Of a DNA stretch of 50,578 bases, positions 1 through 38,414 are shown in pieces. Under the pieces are notes generated by a model. The model made no database searches and was not told the origin of the DNA. It was given only the letters and a program-made list of their open reading frames with translations. How positions within the stretch are numbered: the stretch's first letter is position 1; each line of letters opens with the position of its first letter. The stretch comes from a virus: UHGV virus genome UHGV-1367765; one strand, written 5' to 3'. The translations under genes were made by a program, and so were the position numbers.

Positions 1-55
1 AGTCATCGGGCATTATCTGAACATAAAACACTATCAATAAGTTGGAGTCATTACC
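1..55 (+). mobile_element. IS1 right-end terminal fragment (last 55 bp, includes terminal inverted repeat and the insB stop)
   Basis: Sequence AGTCATCGGGCATTATCTGAACATAAAACACTATCAATAAGTTGGAGTCATTACC matches the IS1 right terminus as recalled; element body lies left of the window. Confidence 0.85.
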
Positions 56-511
56 GTTATTATCGGTGCTGCAGGTAAAGGGGGGGGAGCCGGAAGAAAT
101 TCAGGTAGTGAAGGTGGCACAACTTATTTCGGTTCCCTGATAACTGCACCGGGTGGTACAGGCGGTGGCGCGGGGGGAGCATCTGCAAACACATCATATA
201 TTCAGGGTATTTCATGGGGTGCCAGTCCGACATCGTCCGGTACTGTACTAAGAGCATTTCGCTGTAGTGCAAAAACACCAGGTGCAATGGTTATCTCTGT
301 TAAAGCTGTTGCAGGTGGTACCGGGGGGGATACACCACTAGGTTCAGGCGGTATAGGTGGTGCAAGTTCTTCATCATTCAGCGGACGTGGTGGTGGTAAA
401 GCTGAGGGCTTTGGTGCTGGCGGAGGCGGAGCCTGCGCACCTGCCAGAAGTGAGGCTCAATCGGGAGGTGACGGTGCCCCGGGAATAGTTATTGTTGAGG
501 AGTATGCCTGA
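56..511 (+). pseudogene. IS1-truncated side tail fibre gene, Gly-rich C-terminal portion
   Basis: Frame open from the IS1 junction at 56 through the listed ORF 287..511; GxGG-rich repeats typical of lambdoid side tail fibres; no start codon, 5' part removed by IS1. Confidence 0.55.
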
Positions 512-777
512 TGAGTAATTTTGCTCTGATTGAACATGGCGTGGTGAAAAATATTATTATCTGGGATGGAGAGGGTGATTTATTCTCTAACTGCGAAATT
601 ATAAATATTGATCATATAGATGCAGGCGTCGGTTGGTTCTATTCTGACGGAGAGTTTATAGCGCCACCGGAACCGGAAATGACTGAATATGATGTTGGTA
701 ATATCGACGCGGTGATGGAATCAGATACCAGCACCGCGCCGGGGGTTATCTGGCCAGTTCCACCTGAGATGGTTTAA
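511..777 (+). CDS. tail fibre assembly protein (short Tfa-like)
   Basis: ATG overlaps the fibre stop (ATGA) with a GAGGAG RBS; C-terminus [10 protein letters not shown] resembles the Tfa at 14794..15396. Confidence 0.5.
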   Translation: MSNFALIEHGVVKNIIIWDGEGDLFSNCEIINIDHIDAGVGWFYSDGEFIAPPEPEMTEYDVGNIDAVMESDTSTAPGVIWPVPPEMV

Positions 778-943
778 TCTCAATCAGAATGGGTTCGCCC
801 TTCTCGTTAACAGATATTTCCATTCCTTCAGGGATTTCAGATGCAGTAAAAAACCAGTTATCTTCTGGTAATTCCACAGCCCCGGTCACGTCATGAAGAC
901 CGGGGATTACTTCAGTCAAAGTAACAGGATTAAACAGGCGCAC
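746..943 (-). CDS. putative tail fibre assembly chaperone of the opposite-strand fibre cassette (start uncertain)
   Basis: Lies directly after the minus-strand fibre stop at 930; GTG with GGAGAG RBS around 943; the listed ORF start at 1033 would overlap the fibre by about 100 nt. Confidence 0.3.
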
Positions 944-1852
944 AATAAACTCTCCAGGAAAAAGCACTTGTTGATGGTCTTCCGTCGTACATCTGGCAGC
1001 GGACATAAAAACCTGTATTACTGATCTGGTCATCCACGATCATTGAAACGTGAACGTTATTAGGTGTGGCCTCGTAATCTGTTCTTATTCTTTCCGCTAT
1101 GCTGATAAAACGTGAAAGCTTAGGTAGTGCAATTGGATAAACGACTTTAGCCAGCCCATTATCATTGGAACCACCAGTTCCAAATACTTCTATTGCACCA
1201 TCTGACCAGCGTATCCACGCACCATTGGCATTAGCTCCTCGCTGAATGACATATCTGGCTTCTCCCAAACCAAGGTTTTCGAGAGCTGTTTTCACCGTGC
1301 CATCCGATTTGATATCGCCAAACGGATTCTTGCGGCTTAACAGCAGCGCACGAAGCGCGGTAAGCAGCTGGTCGTGCCGCCCCTTCTCCAGGCTGGCACC
1401 GGATGCCTCCACCACGCTGCAAAGCTCCTCCTGCAACATGTCAAAGTAGTCATCATCCAGATCGGTGGCAGGCGTGCCGGTCTGGGGGTTACCACGGGTA
1501 AAACCGTTCTTACCCGCGCCGAACTTATCCTTCTGCGCGGTTTCCAGCCCAGCAGAGTCTTAAAGAGCATCTGCCGGACATCGTCCACCACATCATACGA
1601 AGCAAACTGACCGCGCTCATCACGCCCGTTACTCAGTATGACAACCACGGAGAAGCCCTCTTTCAGCTCCTGCCAGTAGTCGGTCTGGCTTTTGTTTTCT
1701 CCCGGAGAGTCATCACCCGGTACCACATACGCCGCCGGGAGTCTCAGCTTTCCGACCTCCGGCAGATTTTTGAACTGTGCCGCGCCTGCCACCCGGTTTT
1801 CAAAATACGGGCAGCGGGCACGCAGCGCAGCAATAACAGGCGTCAGTTTCAT
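930..1852 (-). pseudogene. tail fibre gene with an apparent frameshift near 1540-1560
   Basis: N-terminal frame (MKLTPVIAALRARCPYFENR...) runs into junk after LLGWKP; the fibre-like sequence with the conserved motif [24 protein letters not shown] continues in another frame to 930. Confidence 0.45.
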
Positions 1853-2355
1853 CTGTGTCGTCGCTCCGGCTTCAGTGATTTACGCAATTCCCGCGCCAGA
1901 AAATAGCGTGTCCAGCTGCGGTTCTTTTCAAGCGTTTCCACCATGAAGTTATTACGTGGAGCCAGTCGCCAGCCGCTGCCACCGGATGCACCACGATGAT
2001 GGCTGCGACGACGCTTTGCCCCTCGCCTCACGCCATAGAACAAAAAAGCCGGATAAAAATCACCGGTGATACGGCGGTTTCCCTCTCCATTACGCTGGTT
2101 AGGGGCTATACGTGCCATAAAACCAGGGCGATGTTTACTGGCTCTGGGTACCATGTAACCAATCGAACGAGCCAGGCGTCCGGTCTGATAACCGGGGTTT
2201 TCACCCGGTGCCGACCGCGCACGGCGCATCACCAGCCGACGGGCATCACGCATATGACGCTGACCAATCGTGACAAACGCCCGCCGGACACGGGCGCGGT
2301 TAAAGCGCATCTCCGCGGGCTGCTGAAAATCAACGTGCAAAAAGGAAGTCGTCAT
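1849..2355 (-). CDS. phage virion morphogenesis protein (Mu G / tail-completion S-like), likely a remnant
   Basis: Arg-rich protein with TGRLARSIGY-type motif resembling the Mu G family; family call from memory. Confidence 0.35.
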   Translation of the reverse strand: MTTSFLHVDFQQPAEMRFNRARVRRAFVTIGQRHMRDARRLVMRRARSAPGENPGYQTGRLARSIGYMVPRASKHRPGFMARIAPNQRNGEGNRRITGDFYPAFLFYGVRRGAKRRRSHHRGASGGSGWRLAPRNNFMVETLEKNRSWTRYFLARELRKSLKPERRHR

Positions 2356-2593
2356 TGTTGCCTCCGTGACTCTGCCTACATTCGCCCAGCTCCGTACACT
2401 CCAGCAGCAGAAAGCGCCGCGCCCCGTTCAGATCGCGCTGACGTTTCATCCGGTAACCGCGCTGATGACGGGATTGTCCTGGCTTGTATTGCTTCCAGCC
2501 TTCGCTTTTGTGGCTTTCACAATAGCCTGACGGGTCTGTGGTGGTATGGCGGCAGCCACGAACACGGCAGGCTTTTGGGATTCGTGATGGCAT
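2330..2593 (-). CDS. small Cys-rich (zinc-ribbon-like) protein
   Basis: Internal ATG (MPSRIPKACRVRGCRH...) preceded by GGAG; CxxxGC...C.SH pattern; function unknown. Confidence 0.3.
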   Translation of the reverse strand: MPSRIPKACRVRGCRHTTTDPSGYCESHKSEGWKQYKPGQSRHQRGYRMKRQRDLNGARRFLLLECTELGECRQSHGGNNDDFLFAR

Positions 2594-2713
2594 ATGTACT
2601 CCAATGAAGAAGCCACCGACATAGCCTCCTCCATTCATCGTGAAACTATTTTCATCTACCCAGTAATGAATTCTTTGTAGAGTTGTGATCAATACAACTC
2701 ACTAATGGAGAGG

Positions 2714-2735
2714 CTTGTCCAACACGTTGGACAAG
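2714..2735. promoter_or_regulatory. perfect 22-bp palindrome CTTGTCCAACACGTTGGACAAG
   Basis: 10-bp arms around a 2-bp centre, about 120 bp upstream of the ATG of the minus-strand ORF 2330..2593; candidate operator. Confidence 0.35.
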
Positions 2736-3118
2736 TTTCCTGTTTGATTTACTGGACACTATAGAAGGACAGAATGCCTTCATCACTCGAATAACATCAA
2801 TTAAGGAGGTTCAACATGTTTCATTCCACAAATCATCAGGCTGTAATTATGGCTGCATCAGCTTGTACCACAGACCTTTTCCGCTTCACTTTGAGCCTGA
2901 TTCATTTCTACCTGACCGGCTCGCCTCTATCTTTTTAATCCCCGCTTTATCCAAATTGCATTGCCAGAATGCCGACAACAGACTGACATTCAAATCCAGA
3001 CTACCTCCAATAGTCTGACCGTACACCTATATAGTTTTAATTTTCATCAATCCATTTAACTATCGTTTAATTGTTGTCACATAGGATTCTGCCGTTTTTA
3101 ACAATGCAGGATAATAAG

Positions 3119-3412
3119 ATGAAAAAAATGTTGTTTTCTGCCGCTCTGGCAATGCTTATTACAGGATGTGCTCAACAGACGTTTACTGTTGGAAACAAAC
3201 CGACAGCAGTAACACCAAAGGAAACCATCACCCATCATTTCTTCGTTTCGGGAATTGGACAGGAGAAAACTGTTGATGCAGCCAAAATTTGTGGCGGCGC
3301 AGAAAATGTGGTTAAAACAGAAACCCAGCAAACATTCGTAAATGGATTGCTCGGTTTTATTACTTTAGGCATTTATACTCCGCTGGAAGCGCGGGTGTAT
3401 TGCTCACAATAA
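3119..3412 (+). CDS. bor: Bor outer-membrane lipoprotein (serum-resistance, lambda Bor / Iss family)
   Basis: MKKML...LITGCAQQTFTV lipobox; near-identical to lambda Bor as recalled; AGGA RBS; opposite strand to the lysis genes as in lambda. Confidence 0.9.
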   Translation: MKKMLFSAALAMLITGCAQQTFTVGNKPTAVTPKETITHHFFVSGIGQEKTVDAAKICGGAENVVKTETQQTFVNGLLGFITLGIYTPLEARVYCSQ

Positions 3413-3424
3413 TTGCATGAGTTG

Positions 3425-3442
3425 CCCATCGATATGGGCAGC
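3425..3442. terminator. hairpin between convergent bor and Rz
   Basis: TGCCCAT-CGAT-ATGGGCA stem-loop between the two stop codons. Confidence 0.3.
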
Positions 3443-3443
3443 G

Positions 3444-3905
3444 CTATCTGCACTGCTCATTAATATACTTCTGGGTTCCTTCCAGTTGTTTTTGCATAGT
3501 GATCAGCCTCTCTCTGAGGGTGAAATAATCCCGTTCAGCGGTGTCTGCCAGTCGGGGGGAGGCTGCATTATCCACGCCGGAGGCGGTGGTGGCTTCACGC
3601 ACTGACTGACAGACTGCTTTGATGTGCAACCGACGACGACCAGCGGCAACATCATCACGCAGAGCATCATTTTCAGCTTTCGCATCAGCTAACTCCTTCG
3701 TGTATTTTGCATCGAGCGCAGCAACATCACGCTGACGCATCTGCATGTCAGTAATTGTCGAGTTCGCCAGCTTCAGTTCTCTGGCATTTTTGTCGCGCTG
3801 GGCTTTGTAGGTAATGGCGTTATCGCGGTAATGATTAACAGCCCATGACAAGCAAACGATGATGCAGATAACCAGAGCGGAAATAATCGCGGTTACTCTG
3901 CTCAT
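3444..3905 (-). CDS. Rz: i-spanin Rz
   Basis: N-terminus [26 protein letters not shown] matches lambda Rz; start overlaps the endolysin stop. Confidence 0.85.
3503..3685 (-). CDS. Rz1: o-spanin Rz1 lipoprotein embedded in Rz
   Basis: Out-of-frame ORF inside Rz with lipobox LVVVGC and a proline-rich segment, as in lambda Rz1. Confidence 0.8.
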
Positions 3906-4378
3906 ACCTCAATCTCTCTGACCGTTCCGCCTGCTTCTTTGAATTTTGCAATCAGGCTGTCAGCCTTATGCTCGAACTGACCATAACCAGCGCCCGGCAG
4001 TGAAGCCCAGATATTGCTGCAACGGTCAATTGCCTGACGAATATCACCGCGATCAATCATCGGTAAAGCGCCACGCTCCTTAATCTGCTGCAATGCCACA
4101 GCATCCTGGCTTTTCGGAGAGAAGTCTTTCAGAGCAAGCTGCTTACGGTAAGCATCCCACCAGCGTGAAAGAAGCTGATAACGTCCGGCGGCTGTTGATT
4201 TGAGTTTGGGGTTTAGCGTGACACGTTTGCGAGGGTGATCGGAGTAATCAGTGAACAGTTCACCACCAACAATAACATCATAACCGTGGTTACGTGTCGG
4301 TTGTCGCCCGTTATCCGTTCCTTCTGACCATGCCACCATATCCAGGAAAGCTTTACGCTGGGAATTTAGTGCCTGCAT
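3902..4378 (-). CDS. R: endolysin R (lambda-type lytic transglycosylase)
   Basis: 158 aa, near-identical over most of its length to lambda R ([19 protein letters not shown]...). Confidence 0.9.
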
Positions 4379-4381
4379 AAA

Positions 4382-4708
4382 TTACTCCTTCGAGCTACCA
4401 AATTTGTTACCGATTACTCGCATTGCAGCCCCACGAATAGCATCGACACCGATCAGCCCCACGCCACCACCAATGGCAACAGAAAGCGATTTAGGCCATC
4501 CGACATACTCAAGAGCGGATGCAAAGGTCAGCGTCAGAGCGCCACATAGCAAAATCTCGAGCGTTTTTCGCTTCCAGCCACCACCACCGCCAAAATAGGC
4601 GATGCGCAAACCAGCCATAACGATCGACATAATCACTGCACCCAGCGGTGTGTCTCCACGCCACCAGCTCTGGACCAAGTCCAGCCAGGTATTTGGGTTA
4701 TGAGGCAT
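4382..4708 (-). CDS. holin (non-lambda type; start taken at internal ATG)
   Basis: Directly upstream of the endolysin; hydrophobic Gly-rich segments; RBS before MPHNPNTW. Confidence 0.55.
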   Translation of the reverse strand: MPHNPNTWLDLVQSWWRGDTPLGAVIMSIVMAGLRIAYFGGGGGWKRKTLEILLCGALTLTFASALEYVGWPKSLSVAIGGGVGLIGVDAIRGAAMRVIGNKFGSSKE

Positions 4709-4751
4709 TTCGTCATCTCTCACCTCGCGATATTTGCGGGTGCTGTGTTGG

Positions 4752-4777
4752 AAATAAAAAGGCCACGCAACGTGGCC
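4752..4777 (-). terminator. Rho-independent terminator between the methyltransferase gene and the holin
   Basis: GGCCACG-caa-CGTGGCC hairpin followed by a T-run on the minus strand. Confidence 0.5.
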
Positions 4778-4784
4778 ACCAGAA

Positions 4785-5837
4785 TTATTTCCCCACCAGT
4801 TCACTTACCTCTTTCACCGTCTGATTAAACCGCTCTGACTCAAGTTCAACACCTAACGCCCGACGCCCCAGCGCCATTGCTGCTTTTATTGTGGAACCGG
4901 ATCCCATAAAGAAATCAGCAACCAGATCACCAGGTCGACTACTGGCATTGATTATTTGCCGGAGCATATCCGCCGGTTTCTCGCACGGATGTTTACCCGG
5001 GTAGAACTGAACGGGCTTATGCGTCCAGACATCGGTATAAGGCACGGAGACTGATACGGAGAAATAGCGCCGGAGAGATTTAAACTCATCCAGCAATTCA
5101 GAATATTTGCGATTCAGTGAATCATAAGATGCCACCAGCTGGTGGTGTGGTTGTTCCAGTTGTTGTTCCTGAAACTTCTCTGCCGCTATACGGGAAAACA
5201 GTGCCTGTAACTTCCGATAGTCAGCCTCATTCGGCAACTGCCACTGACTGGCACCAAACCAGTGGGAAACCATATTTTTCTTACCTGTGGCTTCGGCAAT
5301 TTGTTTTGCCGTTATACCCAGTTCGGCACGAGCATCCCTGAAATACGATATCAGCGGTGCCATTATGTGCTGTTTGAGTTCCCTTTCTTTTGCCGCATAG
5401 CCGTCACTTTTGCCGCGATATGGCCCCTGGTAATGTTCAGCAAACAGAACGCGCTCTGTGGCAGGAAAATATGCGCGCAGACTTTCTTTATTACACCCAT
5501 TCCAACGTCCGGACGGCTTCGCCCAGATGATATGGTTAAGCACGTTGAAACGTTCACGCATCATGATCTCAATATCAGATGCCAGGCGATGCCCACAGAA
5601 CAGGTAAAGGCTTCCGGCAGGTTTTAACACCCGCCAGAACTGGGCCAGACAGTGGTCCAGCCACTTAAGGTAATCTTCGTCCCCTTTCCACTGATTGTCC
5701 CAGCCGTTGGGTTTCACCTTGAAGTACGGCGGATCGGTAACAATCAGGTCAATGGAATCATCAGGCAGGGACTGAATAAAATGCAGGCAATCAGCGTTGA
5801 TTAAATCAACACTGTTTATTTTTACAGTATTTTTCAT
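4785..5837 (-). CDS. DNA methyltransferase (N6-adenine/N4-cytosine class, DPPY motif)
   Basis: DLIVTDPPYF near the N-terminus and FFMGSGST near the C-terminus; no adjacent restriction enzyme. Confidence 0.8.
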   Translation of the reverse strand: MKNTVKINSVDLINADCLHFIQSLPDDSIDLIVTDPPYFKVKPNGWDNQWKGDEDYLKWLDHCLAQFWRVLKPAGSLYLFCGHRLASDIEIMMRERFNVLNHIIWAKPSGRWNGCNKESLRAYFPATERVLFAEHYQGPYRGKSDGYAAKERELKQHIMAPLISYFRDARAELGITAKQIAEATGKKNMVSHWFGASQWQLPNEADYRKLQALFSRIAAEKFQEQQLEQPHHQLVASYDSLNRKYSELLDEFKSLRRYFSVSVSVPYTDVWTHKPVQFYPGKHPCEKPADMLRQIINASSRPGDLVADFFMGSGSTIKAAMALGRRALGVELESERFNQTVKEVSELVGK

Positions 5838-5971
5838 GGATCAGTAAGCGTAACTCTGGTAGGCTCACTCTGCTTTTGCGCTAAAGCAGTGGGCCGTGGT
5901 TCGCTTGTGACCAGTAAGCATGAGCGAATGGCTGGCAGGTGCTACCAACACCCACCAGCCGCCCATTTTCA

Positions 5972-5999
5972 CAAATTAAAAGCCCTTCATTGCTGAAGG
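5972..5999 (-). terminator. terminator-like hairpin overlapping the 3' end of the 72-aa gene
   Basis: CCTTCA-gcaa-TGAAGG stem followed by a T-rich tract on the minus strand. Confidence 0.35.
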
Positions 6000-6205
6000 C
6001 GTCTGTAACAGCCGAACTGGTAATCTGCCAGCCCCGCCATAACCAGCTGGGTCAGTATTAACTGACAGCGTTCGCGTGAAAGGTATGTGTTTTGTGCAAT
6101 CTCCCCGACTGTTGCCGGTTTGCCGTTTAATTCATTAAAAACAACTTTCGCCGTTTCTGTCATATCTAGCTGTTTTAGCATGTTTTTTACCTTCATGGTT
6201 AACAT
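5987..6205 (-). CDS. small hypothetical protein (72 aa), possible winged-helix regulator
   Basis: ATG start; helix-turn-helix-like segment TVGEIAQNTYLSRERCQLILTQL; upstream of the methyltransferase on the same strand. Confidence 0.4.
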   Translation of the reverse strand: MLTMKVKNMLKQLDMTETAKVVFNELNGKPATVGEIAQNTYLSRERCQLILTQLVMAGLADYQFGCYRRLQQ

Positions 6206-6303
6206 GACATACCAATAACTCTTGTCTAAAAAGCCAGCAAGATAAAAAGTCAGTATTCACGACCACCAGCGTGTTTACCGTACTGCACCAGGTTTACAGG
6301 TAC

Positions 6304-6330
6304 AAAAAAACCCGCTCGACGGCGGGTTTA
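6304..6330. terminator. A/T-flanked GC hairpin (bidirectional terminator-like)
   Basis: AAACCCGC-tcgacg-GCGGGTTT with an A-run on one side, in the AT-rich region upstream of nmpC. Confidence 0.3.
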
Positions 6331-6754
6331 AGCTGTGTGGCGAAGTAACCACTCTTAACAGCATAACCAATTTTTTACGTACGTAAACCTCTAAACAATA
6401 TTTGTGAGAATGATATCGAGTGTTCAAAACACCACCACAATCACATAAGGAAAAATAAACAAATAATCATTAAATAATTTCCGACGTTATTTTCAATGAG
6501 TTTAAATTAAAGAGATGATTTATAGAACACTTATTAATAACAACCTTTAATATAATTTAGCTACCAAATTTATTTTCTTTCAGAGAATAGTCATGTACAG
6601 CATGCAATAGAAAAAGTTCAGATAAAAATAGAGATCTAGATCACAATTTAAATAAGAATCTAAAACTTATATCTTGAATTAATCACATTGATTAGATGAA
6701 TATTTGTCGCGCAGGGCATCATTTTTTAATAAATGTTCAAAAAAAGGTCTCACG

Positions 6755-7852
6755 ATGAAAAAATTAACAGTGGCAATTTCTGCTGTAGCTGCATCAGTAC
6801 TGCTGGCGATGTCTGCTCAGGCAGCAGAGATTTATAATAAAGACAGTAACAAGCTGGATCTGTACGGAAAAGTTAATGCTAAGCACTACTTCTCCTCTAA
6901 CGAGGCAGATGATGGTGACACTACTTATGTTCGTCTGGGCTTCAAAGGCGAAACCCAAATCAACGATCAACTGACTGGTTTCGGTCAGTGGGAATACGAA
7001 TTCAAAGGCAACCGTGCTGAATCTCAGGGTTCTTCCAAAGATAAAACCCGTCTTGCCTTCGCTGGTCTGAAATTCGGTGACTACGGCTCCATCGATTATG
7101 GTCGTAACTACGGTGTAGCATACGACATCGGTGCGTGGACTGACGTACTGCCAGAATTCGGTGGTGATACCTGGACTCAAACCGACGTATTCATGACTCA
7201 GCGTGCAACTGGTGTTGCAACTTACCGTAATAACGACTTCTTTGGTCTGGTTGATGGCCTGAACTTTGCTGCTCAGTATCAGGGCAAAAATGACCGTAAC
7301 GATTTCGAGAACTACACCGAAGGTAACGGTGATGGCTTCGGTTTCTCTGCTACCTATGAATACGAAGGATTCGGCATTGGTGCGACCTATGCAAAATCTG
7401 ATCGTACCGACACTCAAGTCAATGCAGGGAAAGTTCTTCCTGAAGTATTTGCTTCCGGTAAAAATGCAGAAGTTTGGGCTGCAGGTCTGAAATATGACGC
7501 TAACAACATTTACCTGGCCACTACCTATTCTGAAACCCAGAATATGACGGTGTTTGCTGATCACTTCATTGCTAATAAAGCACAGAACTTCGAAGCTGTT
7601 GCACAATATCAGTTCGATTTCGGTCTGCGTCCGTCCGTTGCTTACCTGCATTCTAAAGGAAAAGACTTGGGTGTTTGGGGTGATCAGGACCTGGTTGAAT
7701 ATGTTGATGTAGGTGCAACTTATTACTTCAACAAAAACATGTCTACTTTCGTTGATTACAAAATCAACCTGCTTGACAAAAATGACTTCACTAAAGCACT
7801 CGGTGTAAGCACTGACAACATCGTTGCTGTAGGATTGGTTTACCAGTTCTAA
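6755..7852 (+). CDS. nmpC: outer-membrane porin, NmpC/Lc (OmpC/OmpF/PhoE family), apparently intact
   Basis: 365 aa with signal peptide [23 protein letters not shown] and porin motifs; near-identical to E. coli NmpC as recalled; sits between Q and the lysis genes on the opposite strand, as in DLP12. Confidence 0.9.
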
Positions 7853-7876
7853 TCTGGTTACTAAAAGATATGTTGC

Positions 7877-7893
7877 GGGAGGCGTTGCCTCCC
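7877..7893. terminator. hairpin just downstream of nmpC
   Basis: GGGAGGC-gtt-GCCTCCC stem-loop about 25 nt after the nmpC stop. Confidence 0.35.
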
Positions 7894-7987
7894 CAACATA
7901 TAAGTGGCTCCCTCAAGCCACTTCCTTTAGAAGCACTACCTTGCTTCTGACTATATAAACCTTCTGTTATATATTACCCTTTATTTT

Positions 7988-8015
7988 GGGGGCGTTGACA
8001 CGCCCCATTTTTAAT
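7988..8015 (+). terminator. Rho-independent terminator downstream of nmpC
   Basis: GGGGCG-ttgaca-CGCCCC followed by ATTTTTAATAAAAT. Confidence 0.5.
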
Positions 8016-8039
8016 AAAATTAAGTGAACAATTAGCGTA

Positions 8040-8423
8040 TCAATTGGACTTCGTAACAACGATATCCATCTCTAACCGGATATCTAATGCCATTAACATT
8101 CCTTCAATTATTCCCTCAGCCTTCTGTAACTTTTTCCCGATATAACCATCAGAGCAACAATGCTTGCTTGCAAGTGACATGAATGTCATACCGCCGACAT
8201 AATAATCCACTAGTAAATCATGCAAATCGCTGTTGTTCTTTTTCAGACGGGCCATACATCCGCAAACGATCATCGCGTCATCATCACAACATTGCGGACG
8301 GGATTTTACTTTTGAAGGAAGTACCCCCTTAAAACCAGCAGCAATGGACGACCAGGTCACATCCTCACGGTTATTAGCTGCCCATGCCCCCCAACGCTCA
8401 AGAACCATCTGAATATCACGCAT
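8040..8423 (-). CDS. late-gene antiterminator Q (phage 82 / QuuD type)
   Basis: [18 protein letters not shown]... matches the Q82 family; cysteine cluster; the listed TTG start is 5 codons upstream of this ATG. Confidence 0.8.
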
Positions 8424-8440
8424 CAACTTTCTCCACAAAA

Positions 8441-9436
8441 TCAGGCCAGCACGCCAGTTGCCAGCGCACGATCGATAAAACGAAATATCAACTCCAGCTG
8501 GGAGCCATACTTCTCTTCAAATGCCGCGGTATCCGCATGCAGCTCGTCGTGATGCTTTCTGCACAAAGGCAATACAAAGAGGTCATGCGCTTTTGTACCC
8601 ATTCCGCCCTGACCGTGGCCTATCAGGTGGTGGGGATCATCAGCAGGCTTTCCACAACATGCACACGGCTGTGTCTTAACCCAGCGCGTGTACTTTTCGT
8701 TAACCCAGCGGCGACGTTTTGGGCGTAACATAAAAGACTCCGGCGACTCCGGATCCACTTTCAGCGCCAGCACCTTTTTCACTTTATCCTGGATGATGCT
8801 GGTGGCAGGAACCGAAGGAACAAGGTCACTTTCCCGGGTGACAGACGGCACAACAGGCTTCGGTAATCTCAGTGCCTTACGGGCTGCACTTTCCGGCAAG
8901 GCTCCCGCCAGGTCATTACGAACCAGCCACCAGCACAGTTCCGGCATTGTCACAACGTGACTGTCATCAAAACCGAGATCCCGACGCACAACAGACAACA
9001 CCCAGCGGGCACAGTTATCCGTTGCCATTGATTCCAGCCGTTCCGTGAACTGATCGCGCAGCTGGTTATCGCAGTGCCAGCACAGACGGATTGCACCCGG
9101 CGCGTGTCGCATTGTGGTCATGTTCTCGCTGTGCCAGTCGGAATGAGGCCACTGGCAGCCTTTTTCACGAAGTAACCAGCTTTCAAGACATTCCACGCCA
9201 CCAGCACGACGGATCACTGCCTCATTGCGGAACACGGCCCGAACGGCAGGATCATCCGCCAGCGGTTGTGATGCCGCCGGAACAGCACCACTGGCGAAAG
9301 ATGAATAACGTTCCGGCTCAGGCTCCAGCAGGACACGCCCCTGCATAAACAGGGGCATCAGCTCTGAACCTGGTCTGAACAATACGATCCCCATACGCGG
9401 GGCAATTTCAGGGGTCAGTAGTGCTCTCACGGTCAC
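8441..9436 (-). CDS. prophage protein with Cys/His-rich zinc-binding C-terminus (DUF968-like)
   Basis: CACCGKP...[10 protein letters not shown]...CRKHHDELH motifs; GTG start; family from memory. Confidence 0.45.
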
Positions 9437-9437
9437 C

Positions 9438-10235
9438 TCAATGAACGATATCGAGCAGCTTTAACAGCTCAGGGAATCGGGATTCGAAGAAATGCGGCTG
9501 CGTCTCGCGCGGATTTGCGGGACTGGTGATGTTCTTGCCGAACATGCAGCCTTTCGCTGTCAGCGACCAGAATTTTTTGATGTTGTTAATCGTGGTACGG
9601 CTGTATCGTTCGCGCTGCTCGACGATCCCCAGCTTCACCATCTGGTGATATGCCTGATTAGCCGTCAGGCGTATACCATACTGTTTCAGCAGTGCACTCA
9701 GTGACAGTGTCGGGCGACTTGAGCCATCGTGTGCATCAGCAGGAGCATCAATGGCATAGCGCGGTGCCAGATTCGGTAAGCCAACAGCCTCCTGGAGTTT
9801 CTGACAGGCTCCAAGCACTGAAGAGTTAGACAGGTTTAATTCCCGGCGCATAAAGTCCAGCAGAATCACACCAGCCTGCATCTTGTCAGCAGCCTGTCCG
9901 GATAATTTTTCCGGTGCGCTGGTTACCATATCGAAAGTACGGATCACCTTCAGATGGAATGACGGGCTGATCCACATTGCATAGGCATACACCAGTTCTT
10001 TGCAGACATACGTCCCCTGGTTATTTCCGCCACGAATAACGTTAACTGGCTCTATATTGACCGAGTTGCAAATCTGCAACTCGCTTATTAAACGTTCAGT
10101 TTGCTCATTGCGGAGCCAGAATGCAGGCTTATGCTTATCCAGAGAACCGGCAGCCCTGTGCAGATCGTTCAGGCTGTAACGCCCATAAGCATCACGACGA
10201 ACTTCAATACCATCAATGACCATCAGATTATTCAT
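9438..10235 (-). CDS. KilA-N domain protein
   Basis: N-terminus MNNLMVIDGIEVRRDAYGRYSLNDLHRAAG is KilA-N-like; GAGGAG RBS before this internal ATG. Confidence 0.6.
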   Translation of the reverse strand: MNNLMVIDGIEVRRDAYGRYSLNDLHRAAGSLDKHKPAFWLRNEQTERLISELQICNSVNIEPVNVIRGGNNQGTYVCKELVYAYAMWISPSFHLKVIRTFDMVTSAPEKLSGQAADKMQAGVILLDFMRRELNLSNSSVLGACQKLQEAVGLPNLAPRYAIDAPADAHDGSSRPTLSLSALLKQYGIRLTANQAYHQMVKLGIVEQRERYSRTTINNIKKFWSLTAKGCMFGKNITSPANPRETQPHFFESRFPELLKLLDIVH

Positions 10236-10254
10236 ACTTCGTTTCTCCTCTTGA

Positions 10255-10644
10255 TCAGGCGGCTGCACCCGCCGTTTTCTCGTACTTACTGATAGTGATC
10301 TCGATCTTCCCTCCCGGGATAACCGGTCCCCACTCAACCAGCATTCTTTTCACCTGACTGTCGTCTTCCCACACACCCGCGTGGGTCAGGGCGTCAAACA
10401 GCGCCTTGTTATAGTTGTCCAGATCGCGGATCCGGTTATCCGGAGGAAACAACACGATCTCCACTGAAGCAGGTGCCGACGTTGGTTTCGGCAGGCGACG
10501 TAACTGCTCAACTATTGCTGCGCACGCCGCGCTCTGGAATTTGCGCCCCGCTGCGCTTATCAGACTCTTACCAGCAAACGCCCCTTTGTTGGGGTGTCGC
10601 CAGTACGTGTTCACGCTGGGCGGGAAAGGCAAGATCAGCTTCAT
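10255..10644 (-). CDS. rusA: Holliday-junction resolvase RusA
   Basis: PPSVNTYW and RDLDNYNKALFDAL motifs of the RusA family. Confidence 0.8.
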   Translation of the reverse strand: MKLILPFPPSVNTYWRHPNKGAFAGKSLISAAGRKFQSAACAAIVEQLRRLPKPTSAPASVEIVLFPPDNRIRDLDNYNKALFDALTHAGVWEDDSQVKRMLVEWGPVIPGGKIEITISKYEKTAGAAA

Positions 10645-10967
10645 ACTTTCAGGCCCCTCTCATGTAACCAGTGGGCTGCACGCAGCCTGCCGTTTTCCTC
10701 ACCGGCAAGCAGTGCGCGGATAATCCCGACCGCCTCGCTGTCGTCGTCCTTCACCGCGGTATGAAGCGTTATCCCCCGGGCCACGCCACGCTTTATCGTG
10801 ATGACGCCTTTTTTCTCCAGTGCACGAAGATGCTCTACCGCTGCATTCACTGAACGGTATCCCAGCATGGTTGCCACCTCCTGATTGGTTGGCGGAAAGC
10901 CACGCTCTTTCTGGTAAGAAATCAGCATATCCAGCACCTGCTGCTGGCATTGAGTTAACGTCGTCAT
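10641..10967 (-). CDS. LexA-like winged-helix DNA-binding protein without a peptidase domain
   Basis: TQCQQQVLDMLISYQKERGFPPTNQEVATMLGYRSVNAAVEHLRALEKKGVI resembles the LexA N-terminal domain; stop overlaps the rusA start (ATGA). Confidence 0.55.
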   Translation of the reverse strand: MTTLTQCQQQVLDMLISYQKERGFPPTNQEVATMLGYRSVNAAVEHLRALEKKGVITIKRGVARGITLHTAVKDDDSEAVGIIRALLAGEENGRLRAAHWLHERGLKV

Positions 10968-11455
10968 TACGCCCCCACGTAATTCCCTGACAGATACCAC
11001 TCATCACTCGATACAGCGCGCTTGCTGCTTTTCCGTAAACACTGCTCACGACGCGCCAGAAAATTGTTTCGTTCTGGCTGGGAGTGGCTTTCACGGAATG
11101 CCGCCATCCACACCGTTGCAGCACGACGGTATAAGCCCCTGGACTCCAGTTCTTCTGACTGGCGGGTCAGGCACAAAATCTCCCGCGGGTCGTTAGTGCC
11201 GACATAGAAATTGCGCACAGGTCTGGTTTCACGAACTGGTTGCGGTTCCGGTTCCTGCGCTCTCTCAGTCAGGCGCGGGAAATGTCTGCGTGTATCTCCT
11301 TCACAACGGTGAGCCACACGCCCACTCTGACGTAACTTGCTTGCTGACTGCAGAACGCGCTGCCGTGAGTAACCTGCAAAAGCATCCGCAATGTCTCCGG
11401 AAGTACATCCCGGATGGGCTTCAATGAATTTCTGAACTTCATTCAAAAGACTCAT
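10967..11455 (-). CDS. PerC-family transcriptional regulator-like protein
   Basis: C-terminal LESRGLYRRAATVWMAAF...RREQCL resembles the PerC motif; translationally coupled (TAATG) to the LexA-like gene. Confidence 0.5.
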   Translation of the reverse strand: MSLLNEVQKFIEAHPGCTSGDIADAFAGYSRQRVLQSASKLRQSGRVAHRCEGDTRRHFPRLTERAQEPEPQPVRETRPVRNFYVGTNDPREILCLTRQSEELESRGLYRRAATVWMAAFRESHSQPERNNFLARREQCLRKSSKRAVSSDEWYLSGNYVGA

Positions 11456-11457
11456 GA

Positions 11458-12180
11458 TCACCCCCTGAATCCTGCCGGGATCTGGCTGTAGTCCACGTTG
11501 TCGTAACTGGATTTGAAGTACGGGTCTTCGCGTTTTTCGGTGTACGTGCTGACGGACGGTGATAAGCGCAGGGAAAGCTCATCCCATTTTTCCCGCAACT
11601 TCGACGGGCTGAGCACGTTACGGCACCAGAACGGATCGCGGCTGACGCGGCTGTACATCTCGCAGATTTGTTTGTGAGTACGACCATCCTGCACACACAT
11701 CAGGCGAATTTCGTTTGCCCAGGCTGTCCAGTTCGGTTCTTTGGGACGAACCACCTCGCCGTCACATTCGGCGGCTTGCTCGTACAGGGCGATGATTTTT
11801 TTCCAGAGCCACTGTGCGCAGGTCAAATCATCCTGCGTTCCCCACTGGCGCTTTTTAGGGCTGAATACAACCGCATCAGGATGGCGAGTTAAAAAATCCT
11901 GTTCATCCGTCTGCGTGTCCGGTTGCGAAGCGTCCGGACGAGAAGGTTTTTTATCTGACGGATCATGTTTTGATTTTACTGACGGATCCCCGCCAGATTC
12001 TGACGGGTGAAAACCCGCTTTTTTGCCAGATTTCGACGCATCAAATTTTGACGGGTCAGATTTTGATGCGTCAGATTTTGACGGGTCAGAATCTGACAGT
12101 TGAGAAAATGCCGCTGCCTGAAGCTTCGCAACGTTAAGCTGATAAACATTCGACGCATTGCGGTTATCGGAGTTACGCAA
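11458..12180 (-). pseudogene. 5'-truncated replication-initiator (O-like) remnant with a repeat-encoded Asp/Ser/Lys-rich segment
   Basis: No in-frame ATG near the 5' end (listed start is TTG); iteron-like DNA repeats encode DPSKSDASKSDPSKFDASKS; abuts a divergent plus-strand gene. Confidence 0.35.
11950..12105. repeat. iteron-like direct repeats (about 8 copies of TTTTGACGGGTCAGA-like units)
   Basis: Visible tandem units, each with a small TGAC..GTCA dyad, at roughly 16-17 bp spacing. Confidence 0.5.
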
Positions 12181-12543
12181 ATGCGCATGAATGTTTTCGA
12201 AATGGAAGGGTTTCTTCGTGGGAGATGTGTACCGCGAGATCTGAAAGTGAATGAAACAGATGCTGAATACCTGGTGCGTAAATTCGATGCGCTTGAAGCT
12301 AAATGTGCAGCACAGGAAAACAAAGTAATACCAGTGTCAACTGAACTGCCACCAGCAAATGAAAGTGTTTTGTTATTCGATGCTAACGGAGAAGGCTGGC
12401 TAATTGGCTGGCGTTCTCTCTGGTACACCTGGGGACAAAAAGAAACCGGAGAATGGCAGTGGACATTTCAGGTCGGGAGCCTTGAAAACGTCAATATCAC
12501 TCACTGGGCAGTAATGCCAAAAGCACCGGAGGCTGGAGCATAA
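12181..12543 (+). CDS. DUF551-like prophage protein
   Basis: ATG with GGAG RBS; Trp-rich C-terminus ending NITHWAVMPKAP resembles the DUF551 signature. Confidence 0.45.
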   Translation: MRMNVFEMEGFLRGRCVPRDLKVNETDAEYLVRKFDALEAKCAAQENKVIPVSTELPPANESVLLFDANGEGWLIGWRSLWYTWGQKETGEWQWTFQVGSLENVNITHWAVMPKAPEAGA

Positions 12544-12848
12544 TGACCACTTTTACCGACAAAGAACTGATTAAAGAAATTAAAGAGCGTATCAGCAGCC
12601 TTGACGTGCGAGACGATATTGAGCGCCGTGCTTATGAAATCGCACTCCTATCTCTGGAAGTAGAACCAGATGAACGCGAAGCTTATGAATTATTCATGGA
12701 AAAGCGTTTCGGTGACTTAGTAGATCGTCGGAGAGCAAAAAACGGCGATAACGAATACATGGCATGGGATATGACTCTCGGTTGGATCGTCTGGCAGCAA
12801 CGAGCAGGTATCCATTTTTCAACAATGTCACAACAAGAGGTGAAATAA
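12543..12848 (+). CDS. hypothetical protein (101 aa)
   Basis: ATG overlaps the upstream stop (TAATG); continuous with xis and int on the same strand. Confidence 0.45.
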   Translation: MTTFTDKELIKEIKERISSLDVRDDIERRAYEIALLSLEVEPDEREAYELFMEKRFGDLVDRRRAKNGDNEYMAWDMTLGWIVWQQRAGIHFSTMSQQEVK

Positions 12849-13198
12849 TGGAGCCATACAGCCTCACACTCGATGAGGCCTGTCATTTTCTTAAGATATC
12901 CAGACCGACTGCCATTAACTGGATACGCACAGGGCGTCTTCAGGCAACACGCAAAGATCCCACTAAGAATAAATCTCCTTACCTCACAACACGACAAGCC
13001 TGCATTGCGGCTCTTCAGTCTCCGCTGCATACTGTCCAGGTGAGCGCGGGTGATGGCATAACAGAGGAAAGAAAATGTCACTCTTCCGCAGAGGTGAAAT
13101 ATGGTACGCCAGTTTCACATTGCCGAACGGTAAAAGATTTAAACAGTCTCTTGGAACAAAGGACAAAAGGCAGGCGACAGAACTCCATGACAAGCTAA
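12848..13198 (+). CDS. xis: excisionase-like DNA-binding protein
   Basis: HTH-like N-terminus ([26 protein letters not shown]); immediately upstream of and overlapping int. Confidence 0.5.
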
Positions 13199-14238
13199 AG
13201 GCTGAAGCATGGCGGGTCAGCAAACTTGGTGAAATACCTGATATAACGTTCGAGGAAGCGTGTGTCAGGTGGCTTGAAGAGAAAGCACATAAAAAATCAC
13301 TGGACGATGACAAAAGCCGGATCGGATTCTGGCTTCAACATTTCGCAGGAATGCAACTAAGAGACATTACTGAATCAAAAATTTATTCAGCAATGCAGAA
13401 AATGACGAACCGGCGTCATGAGGAAAACTGGAAACTCAGGGCAGAAGCATGCAGAAAAAAAGGGAAACCTGTTCCAGAATACACGCCAAAACCAGCGTCC
13501 GTTGCAACGAAGGCTACGCATCTTTCATTTATAAAGGCCCTACTAAGAGCCGCAGAGCGTGAATGGAAAATGCTGGATAAGGCACCAATTATTAAAGTGC
13601 CTCAACCAAAGAATAAACGGATCCGCTGGCTGGAGCCCCATGAAGCACAAAGGCTGATTGATGAATGTCCGGAGCCATTAAAGTCTGTTGTTGAATTTGC
13701 ACTGGCAACAGGCTTAAGACGCTCGAACATCATCAACCTTGAATGGCAACAAATAGACATGCAGCGCCGGGTGGCATGGATAAACCCGGAAGAGAGTAAA
13801 TCAAACCGCGCAATTGGCGTTGCGCTGAATGATACTGCATGTCGCGTTTTGAAAAAACAAATCGGGAATCATCACCGTTGGGTATTTGTGTACAAGGAAA
13901 GCTGTACCAAACCAGACGGAACGAAAGCGCCAACAGTAAGGAAGATGCGGTATGACGCAAACACAGCCTGGAAAGCGGCGCTGAGACGGGCTGGTATTGA
14001 TGATTTCAGATTTCACGACTTGAGACACACCTGGGCAAGTTGGCTGGTTCAAGCCGGAGTCCCGTTGTCAGTGTTACAGGAAATGGGAGGCTGGGAGTCT
14101 ATCGAAATGGTTCGTCGATATGCTCACCTTGCACCTAATCACCTTACCGAACACGCACGGCAAATAGACTCGATCCTGAACCCATCGGTCCCAAATTTGT
14201 CCCAGTCAAAAAATAAGGAAGGTACTAATGATGTGTAA
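13075..14238 (+). CDS. int: tyrosine integrase (lambdoid Int family)
   Basis: 387 aa with the R..HxxR..Y catalytic pattern ([10 protein letters not shown]...VRRYAH); very similar to E. coli lambdoid prophage integrases as recalled; 3' end faces the att core. Confidence 0.9.
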
Positions 14239-14252
14239 CTTATTGATTTAAA

Positions 14253-14298
14253 TGGTGCCGATAATAGGAGTCGAACCTACGACCTTCGCATTACGAAT
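14253..14298 (-). other. att core: 46-nt copy of the 3' end of tRNA-Thr (thrW-type), not a complete tRNA
   Basis: Minus strand reads ...ATTCGTAATGCGAAGGTCGTAGGTTCGACTCCTATTATCGGCACCA; similarity to the tRNA stops upstream of this; 14 bp after the int stop. Confidence 0.7.
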
Positions 14299-14460
14299 CT
14301 GTAGCACCAATCATAACTATCTGTTTTAGCAAGCATTAACCGCATTCACTAAGCTATAGTTGATGGCACAAACAGAAAGCTGATGCATGATGTTGTCATG
14401 TGTATGTCACAAATACGGCACAACGATCTTCAAACATGTAGCCACACATCCACAGAAGAG

Positions 14461-38258: not shown

Positions 38259-38334
38259 TGGTGCTGGTTAACGGACTTGAACCGCTACCCATTCGCTTAC
38301 AAGGCGACCGCTCTACCATTGGAGCTAAACCAGC
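38259..38334 (-). tRNA. tRNA-Thr (anticodon UGU inferred)
   Basis: Hand-folded cloverleaf: 7-bp acceptor stem, D-stem GCTC/GAGC, anticodon loop CTTGTAA, T-loop TTCAAGT, 3' ACCA. Confidence 0.55.
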
Positions 38335-38339
38335 ATGTT

Positions 38340-38414
38340 TGGCGGGACAGCGTGGACTCGAACCACGATAAGAAGGTTAACAGCCTTCCGTAATGACCTT
38401 TATACGACTGACCC
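38340..38414 (-). tRNA. tRNA-like gene, anticodon GUU (Asn) inferred; possibly degenerate
   Basis: Cloverleaf with anticodon loop CTGTTAA, T-arm CGTGG-TTCGAGT-CCACG, 3' GCCA, but a U-U mismatch in the acceptor stem and a 3-bp D-stem. Confidence 0.4.

Follow-up and report, generated by a model that had tools for sequence, protein, structure and literature searches.

An IpeX-type 3' untranslated region behind a phage-borne porin gene and its predicted pairing with host ompC and ompF mRNAs

Introduction

Porins of the Lc/NmpC type are known from phage PA-2 (Lc) and from the DLP12 (qsr') prophage (NmpC), where the genes occupy a common lambdoid map place, the interval from Q to the lysis genes, with the reverse orientation to these. 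In DLP12 the porin transcript is also the source of ipeX, which one paper describes as a 167-nucleotide (nt) RNA transcribed from the porin promoter within the porin transcript and then processed (PMC12197685). OmpC and OmpF are reported to be the targets of IpeX, with both proteins lowered by the RNA, and one paper classes IpeX as Hfq-independent. We analysed the virus genome UHGV-1367765 of UHGV (50,578 nt in total, hereafter the window) and found an intact porin gene of this type that was followed by an IpeX-type 3' untranslated region (UTR). The element itself, an Lc/NmpC porin with an IpeX-type UTR, is known; new are the placement of pR' (the late promoter of the phage), a model in which the UTR pairs with host porin mRNAs, and a diverged clade of the element in P7 and on plasmids. 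Phage porins alter the entry of substances into the cell as well as the susceptibility to phages, colicins and antibiotics.

We propose that the locus is a self-contained porin-swap cassette, i.e. a moron consisting of a promoter region, the porin gene, an IpeX-type UTR and its own terminator, and we regard the pairing mechanism attached to it as moderately probable. In a defective lambdoid prophage, and located there between Q and the late promoter, an AT-rich and probably CRP-responsive promoter region would drive the porin gene. Porin transcription would co-produce the UTR, which would either stay within the mRNA or be processed to an RNA of ~165 nt. Within this RNA, three stable 5' hairpins and the terminator would flank a conserved and largely single-stranded A/U-rich segment (7953-7987, hereafter the seed), which would pair with the translation-initiation regions (TIRs) of host porin mRNAs. 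Ribosome binding would thereby be blocked, and in the outer membrane OmpC and OmpF would give way to the phage porin. The phage porin mRNA would escape because its own start region is not complementary to the seed.

The proposed mode would be shared with MicF and MicC, the antisense small RNAs of ompF and ompC, which pair imperfectly over the ribosome-binding region of porin mRNAs (PMC3617542). MicF and MicC are free-standing genes of unrelated sequence, whereas the RNA described here is the 3' UTR of a phage-borne competing porin, and we do not claim membership in that group.

The porin and its 3' untranslated region

The porin open reading frame (ORF) covered the complete Pfam model Porin_1 (PF00267, positions 1-337 of 337, E 1.6e-156) and passed the NCBIfam cut-off for the subfamily 'porin OmpC'. 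From residue 24 onward, which is the mature part, the protein aligned end to end with solved OmpC and OmpK36 chains, and its signal peptide of 23 amino acids (aa) was the one annotated for PA-2 record J02580. Compared to Lc of PA-2 it showed 96% aa identity in an ungapped alignment with 13 substitutions. By its sequence the protein is a general bacterial porin (OmpC/OmpF/PhoE class) of the Lc/NmpC subgroup, encoded by an intact phage-borne gene copy, and the full-length porin with signal peptide that an earlier interpretation of the letters alone (the sequence-only reading) had described was confirmed by these matches. In K-12 nmpC is split by IS5, unlike the gene in the window. The porin arrangement in DLP12, phage 434B and many lambdoid phages matches that of the window, and the same reading had described the gene as lying in opposite orientation to Q on one side and the lysis genes on the other, which agreed with the minus-strand neighbours that we found on both sides (Table 1). 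What sets the window apart from the described Lc/NmpC carriers is the element around the gene, a prophage that is short and defective and has, downstream, a methyltransferase module like that of Stx phages.

The region between the porin stop codon and its terminator aligned to the nmpC-quuD spacer of DLP12 in MG1655, i.e. the ipeX locus, with 93.9% identity over 165 nt. All stems were identical between the two sequences, and the differences were confined to loops and linkers. In position the UTR corresponds to MG1655 574340-574528, from porin stop to terminator on the porin strand, and the length of ~163 nt from stop codon to terminator in the window is compatible with the 167 nt described for ipeX. 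By its nucleotide identity the UTR is closely homologous to the ipeX region of DLP12, and the relationship to ipeX that had been suggested earlier held up in this alignment. It shares its position facing Q with ipeX of DLP12 and with the 3' UTR of lc in PA-2, and the proposed seed is identical in all three. Searches of Rfam under permissive E-values and under gathering thresholds returned no IpeX family, but only chance or terminator-like matches (Trp_leader, isrK) on the minus-strand leader. Among complete Escherichia coli genomes the UTR was present in 2,510 of 5,426 (~46%).

The stretch 7853-8015 was predicted to fold with -61.9 kcal/mol, as opposed to -33.4 +/- 3.8 kcal/mol for dinucleotide shuffles (z = -7.6), and none of 200 shuffles reached an equal value. 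Two hairpins including a terminator had been described here before; the terminator was recovered, while the count had to be raised to four hairpins plus the terminator. Three of the four are stable and the last one is a weak hairpin made up entirely of A-U pairs. In this part of the UTR the predicted probability of being unpaired was 0.7-1.0 at 7959-7966 and at 7974-7988.

Complementarity to the start regions of ompC and ompF

Since RNAduplex runs of the whole UTR against whole leaders gave global duplexes with huge loops that were uninformative, windowed duplexes were used instead. The core of the seed at 7958-7972 (AACCUUCUGUUAUAU) was complementary to positions -21 to -7 of MG1655 ompC (AUAUAACAGAGGGUU) in 15 contiguous pairs, 14 of them Watson-Crick and one G-U, directly over the Shine-Dalgarno (SD) sequence. 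The full duplex of 7953-7987 would cover ompC from -32 to -2, including the SD sequence, with 27 pairs and -26.7 kcal/mol (-16.4 kcal/mol after opening costs). On ompF the segment 7960-7982 would cover -15 to +9, including the start codon, with -18.6 kcal/mol (-11.5 kcal/mol after opening costs). The ompC target site is highly constant in the host, since 5,346 of the 5,426 E. coli genomes have it with an identity of 99% or more. In E. coli CFT073 at 37 C, nmpC copies have been described as up and ompC as down.

The duplex energies were compared to three backgrounds with ~56,000 segments in all, namely 8,850 55-mers of the window, 46,898 enterobacterial 55-mers, and 410 TIR-like sites defined by an SD motif, an ATG and an open frame. 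For the lambdoid seed against ompC no segment in any of the three backgrounds was as good. Against ompF the same seed was equalled or surpassed by 23 of the window 55-mers (0.26%), 166 of the enterobacterial 55-mers (0.35%) and 8 of the TIR-like sites (2%). We further included the diverged UTRs of the P7 type, which are described below, and used the seed of the copy on plasmid pTB91P2 (L171) for the background tests. This seed reached -26.1 kcal/mol on ompF, unmatched in all three backgrounds, and -23.4 kcal/mol on ompC, where a single enterobacterial 55-mer and none of the window 55-mers or TIR-like sites did as well. In windowed duplexes the three P7-type UTRs gave -23.4 to -26.1 kcal/mol with ompF, and those of pTB91P2 and pRHB18 gave -21.3 kcal/mol with ompC. 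The P7-type seed pairs best with ompF, in 16 + 6 pairs across the SD sequence and the start codon, and on ompC its pairing lies over the start codon and not over the SD sequence.

Controls remained at background level, with -9.6 to -11.5 kcal/mol for ompA and -7.3 to -8.5 kcal/mol for the start regions of the porins' own genes. The pattern is in accord with OmpC and OmpF as the reported targets of IpeX and with its classification as Hfq-independent. Castillo-Keller and co-workers reportedly found in 2006 that OmpA was unaffected, and that the effect on ompC was Hfq-independent and the effect on ompF was not, which would match the strong duplex on ompC and the weaker one on ompF. Within the window, the best other partner of the seed was the start region (13040-13090, plus strand, GGCATAACAGAGGAAAGAAAATG) of the integrase gene (13075-14238) with -24.2 to -24.6 kcal/mol. 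It ranked at the top of the 410 TIR-like sites and might reflect either chance or a second target in the same prophage.

Several points weigh against direct pairing. Three papers that cite the original study state that IpeX does not pair with ompC or ompF, or that there is no complementary sequence (PMC3617542, PMC10690425, PMC12197685), whereas the sequence shared by the window and ipeX has extended complementarity to both. The seed is predisposed to start regions because it holds an anti-SD motif in A/U-rich flanks; compared to random DNA, TIR-like sites had an average advantage of ~2 kcal/mol, and -24.2 kcal/mol was reached at the start of the prophage's own integrase gene. Moreover the TIR-like background was small with 410 sites, and the pairing of the lambdoid seed with ompF was only moderately unusual. 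Finally the two clades use different registers on ompC, and what is maintained is therefore complementarity and not a conserved duplex.

The literature statements, the predisposition of the seed and the integrase match would also fit an indirect mode of action, in which the UTR, being IpeX, reduces OmpC and OmpF by other means, e.g. by hairpins that titrate or recruit a protein such as Hfq, ProQ or an RNase, and in which the complementarity is a by-product of an anti-SD-like sequence. The conservation of hairpins 1-3 and of the loop CCCUCA across clades would be in line with such a role. However, the ompC duplex was better than all ~56,000 background segments, the diverged clade was still strongly complementary to the two known targets but not to ompA, and no other unpaired part of the RNA is as conserved as the complementary segment. 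In addition, no GGA-type CsrA motifs were visible in the loops of the predicted UTR fold. An indirect action appears rather unlikely to us.

That the seed directly base-pairs with host ompC and ompF mRNAs is a hypothesis towards which we lean modestly. We lean only slightly towards the wider proposal that IpeX-type UTRs are true antisense regulators, whose seed, found on at least two unrelated phage backbones and on plasmids, would occlude the sites of ribosome binding on ompC and ompF of the host and spare the phage porin mRNA. If true, this would overturn a widely cited, 20-year-old account in which IpeX regulates without base pairing, and the mechanism would be ordinary occlusion of the ribosome-binding site. 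It would further describe a mobile module of 'porin gene plus anti-host-porin RNA', in which one transcript makes the phage porin and silences the host porins. Possibly the seed was derived from an inverted copy of a porin leader.

The loop CCCUCA of hairpin 2 (7910-7915), which is conserved in lambdoid and P7-type copies, is complementary to UGAGGG, which occurs in the SD region of ompF and also, for ompC, in the 5' portion of the leader. It may represent a second contact, although a 6-mer is weak evidence.

Conservation and spread of the untranslated region

In a comparison of 12 related loci the UTR differed from that of the window at 2-12% of positions, versus 13-38% at the four-fold sites of the porin coding sequence (CDS), which corresponds to a 3-8 times slower divergence. 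A larger set of 88 loci comprised 22 UTR variants, among which positions 7957-7978 were invariant. The difference in variability between stems and loops was weak (Fisher p = 0.02 without the locus L108 and 0.11 with it) because the lambdoid copies are too alike, and support for the structure came instead from the P7 clade. Locus L108, an IMG/VR contig, differed from all other copies by a cluster of C/G substitutions in hairpins 1-2, which are probably due to an assembly or sequencing error.

Phages of the P7 type (P1-like) and three plasmids of Escherichia fergusonii encoded a porin gene with ~75% nt identity, nmpC in the case of P7, followed by a UTR with ~65-70% identity. These copies resemble the window in having a homologous UTR with hairpins 1-3, the A/U-rich segment and the terminator, and differ from it in that they lack a neighbouring Q and reside on a backbone of P1 type or on a plasmid. 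In a structure common to both clades 95.4% of cells were paired, versus 46-54% when the partners were slid against each other. Compensatory changes occurred at 9 pairs, 7 of which belong to hairpins 1-3, as compared to 0-3 pairs after sliding. Hairpins 1-3 and the terminator were kept across the lambdoid and P7 clades. The segment from hairpin 3 to the terminator was unpaired in the consensus structure, yet nowhere in the alignment was conservation higher.

In E. albertii the porin gene, the UTR and the terminator were retained beside host genes and without Q. Because the E. albertii copies as well as the P7 and plasmid copies lack a nearby Q, conservation of the UTR tracks the porin and not Q. 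The cassette travels as a unit. Among the E. fergusonii plasmids with P7-type porin and UTR, one (L172) was typed as IncI1/B/O, which is conjugative, and pTB91P2 as IncHI1B, so that the mobility of the cassette is not limited to phage backbones. In 79 loci, a search with a UTR profile (nhmmer) gave no copy beside chromosomal ompD/ompC-like porins of other genera, and blastn likewise found none there.

These data also bear on a simpler explanation, according to which the 3' region is merely a terminator, mRNA-stability or insulator module between the convergent porin and Q genes and has no role in trans. Its location between convergent genes would suit such a module, as would the near-palindromic hairpins, which fold on the minus strand too (z = -5.7). 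But the unpaired segment is conserved as much as the stems, and the UTR was kept in E. albertii, P7 and plasmids where there is no convergent Q. Furthermore the 94%-identical DLP12 sequence is reported to lower OmpC and OmpF. We consider a purely local function improbable.

Position of the late promoter

The Q protein of the window matched Pfam PF06530, which represents the Q21 family (PMC9388147), and shared 75-77% of its residues with the Q proteins of 933W and VT2-Sakai. Homology to Stx-phage Q stopped at codon 126 of the 127 codons, and this point coincides with the start of the porin cassette. In late cassettes of the Q21 family pR' directly adjoins Q, which was not the case in the window. 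Here the pR' homologue was located between porin and lysis genes, past the porin cassette and 1.65 kb from Q, and a terminator scan found an intrinsic terminator on the minus strand within 6302-6329. This pR' element was common to all porin-bearing lambdoid phages that we examined, with 93% identity, and in phages such as 2G7b it immediately precedes the holin gene. A scan of the minus strand between Q and porin (7853-8045) gave no promoter-like site. Given this gap without a promoter and the pR' homologue at 6387-6302, the cassette (~6425-8039) lies between Q and the putative pR'.

The closest described counterpart is the pR'-tR' region with StxS in Stx phages, whose promoter, start region and first terminator are 77% identical at nt level to those of the window. 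In Stx phages pR' follows right after Q and the transcript extends 258 nt to tR', whereas the porin cassette intervenes in the window, which shares with them only the first 50-nt leader and the terminator and continues with a different module. In Min27 pR' (TTTACG-16-TATCAT) lies at the Q stop codon with a transcription start site (TSS) ~22 nt past that stop, and the terminator scan gave one terminator ~50 nt downstream. By eye we found a second terminator-like sequence in Min27, unlisted in the scan, which consists of GCCAGCC...GGCTGG and a T-run (L089, ~1466-1492) and lies ~258 nt downstream. Its spacing from the TSS equals the 258 nt that were determined as pR'-tR' distance in Sakai Stx phages by dRNA-seq and Term-seq (PMC7547250).

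Late transcripts would consequently begin beyond the porin gene and head away from it, and only read-through of the Q transcript could cross the porin in antisense direction. The sequence-only reading had assumed an obligatory antisense passage of late transcripts through the porin, which conflicts with the pR' homologue at 6387-6353 (minus strand) on the lysis side of the gene. Of its span of 6360-8015, the first 65 nt (6360-6425) belong to the late promoter and not to the porin. An extension of this picture would have the structured region act mainly on the minus strand, as late-leader or tR' sequence. The gene order Q, porin, lysis genes would allow it, and hairpins 2 and 1, when read on the minus strand, precede U-containing tails. 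Against it stand the location of the pR' homologue beyond the porin, the lack of any minus-strand promoter-like site within 7853-8045 and the conservation of the UTR with the porin rather than with Q, and we regard it as very improbable. With a relocated pR' the porin would be insulated from late transcription and not crossed by it, which matters for the modelling of prophage expression.

Further details of the promoter were as follows. A relation to phage 82, whose pR' is characterized by an extended -10-like element and GCC at +15-17, was considered for Q and dropped since Q matches PF06530. The direct TGAGCA repeat that forms the Q-binding element in phage 21 was not seen when the promoter spacer TACGTAAAAAATTGGT was read by eye, a pattern search not having been run. 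A pause-element candidate near pR', TACTTC, was a poor match to the -10-like pause element. The -10 hexamer TATGCT of the window appears weaker than TATCAT of the Stx phages. The combination of pR', a leader of ~50 nt and a strong terminator would be expected to yield a short constitutive RNA comparable to StxS or lambda 6S, and the minus strand of 6302-6387 showed a weak Rfam similarity to isrK (E 3.7).

The upstream region of the porin gene

The stretch 6400-6800 had a GC content of 0.23-0.30 compared to 0.45-0.55 in its surroundings, so that the AT-rich upstream region noticed before is borne out. It was the least conserved part of the cassette, with ~81% identity among lambdoid copies. Two motifs, the CRP half-site TCACA and CTTGAA, were nevertheless conserved out to P7, which has a perfect TGTGA-N6-TCACA site. 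The conserved TTGAAT is located ~80 nt before the porin ATG. It is plausible that the AT-rich stretch represents a regulated promoter region, and expression in the prophage state would fit because the CRP-like site is conserved and corresponds to the CRP site annotated in J02580 of PA-2.

Genomic neighbourhood

The features of the locus and its neighbouring genes are listed in Table 1. The ORF assigned as putative lysozyme had no match in Pfam or NCBIfam.

Table 1. Features of the porin locus and adjacent genes (positions in the window)
Feature	Position	Strand	Remarks
ORF, putative lysozyme	3902-4378	-	assigned from sequence and position after holin; lysis side of porin
Lambda-type holin	4382-4804	-	lysis side of porin
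N6/N4 DNA methyltransferase	4785-5837	-	lysis side of porin
72-aa ORF	5987-6205	-	lysis side of porin
Putative pR', short leader and intrinsic terminator	6302-6387	-	77% nt homology to Stx-phage pR' region
Parts of putative pR'	6387-6382; 6365-6360; ~6353; 6329-6308	-	TTTACG; TATGCT; TSS; terminator stem, T-run to 6302
AT-rich porin upstream region	6426-6754	+	CRP-like site 6631-6646; TTGAAT 6673-6678, conserved
Lc/NmpC-type porin gene	6755-7852	+	365 aa; signal peptide 6755-6823; Pfam Porin_1, identity to PA-2 Lc
Porin 3' UTR, IpeX-type RNA region	7853-8012	+	identity to ipeX locus, fold z, slow divergence
Stable hairpins 1, 2 and 3	7868-7901; 7902-7923; 7927-7950	+	predicted fold; hairpin 2 loop CCCUCA
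Weak all-A-U hairpin	7952-7973	+	loop ACCUUCUG holds anti-SD sequence
Proposed seed	7953-7987	+	mostly unpaired; ompC core 7958-7972; ompF site 7960-7982
Intrinsic terminator of porin transcript	7989-8012	+	stem 7989-8006; T-run 8008-8012
Q antiterminator gene	8040-8423	-	Q21 family, QuuD/Q933W-like; PF06530; convergent with porin

The module past the terminator of the putative pR' element (5840-6328, minus strand), which comprises the 72-aa ORF together with the beginning of the methyltransferase region, was 95.5% identical to the post-Q region of Shigella phage SfV. The joint of this SfV-like mosaic coincides with the terminator.

The window as a whole appears to contain two elements. Positions 1-14300 resemble a short defective lambdoid remnant that encoded an integrase, KilA-N, DUF968, a RusA-like protein, Q, porin, methyltransferase and lysis genes, without head or tail genes. 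Positions 14800-47000 form a second, separate block, phage-like and encoded on the minus strand, with Baseplate_J, an SLT-domain protein, DUF2213 and a DnaB helicase, and this block also carried tRNA-Thr and tRNA-Asn at 38259-38414.

The same stretch of Q, porin and UTR was found in E. coli ETEC1730 (NZ_CP122832), with 100% identity for the UTR and Q and 99.9% for the porin CDS (one mismatch). This copy differs in that ISKox3 adjoins the methyltransferase gene, followed by tRNA-Ile and tRNA-Arg, and it is part of a prophage remnant beside thrW/proA.

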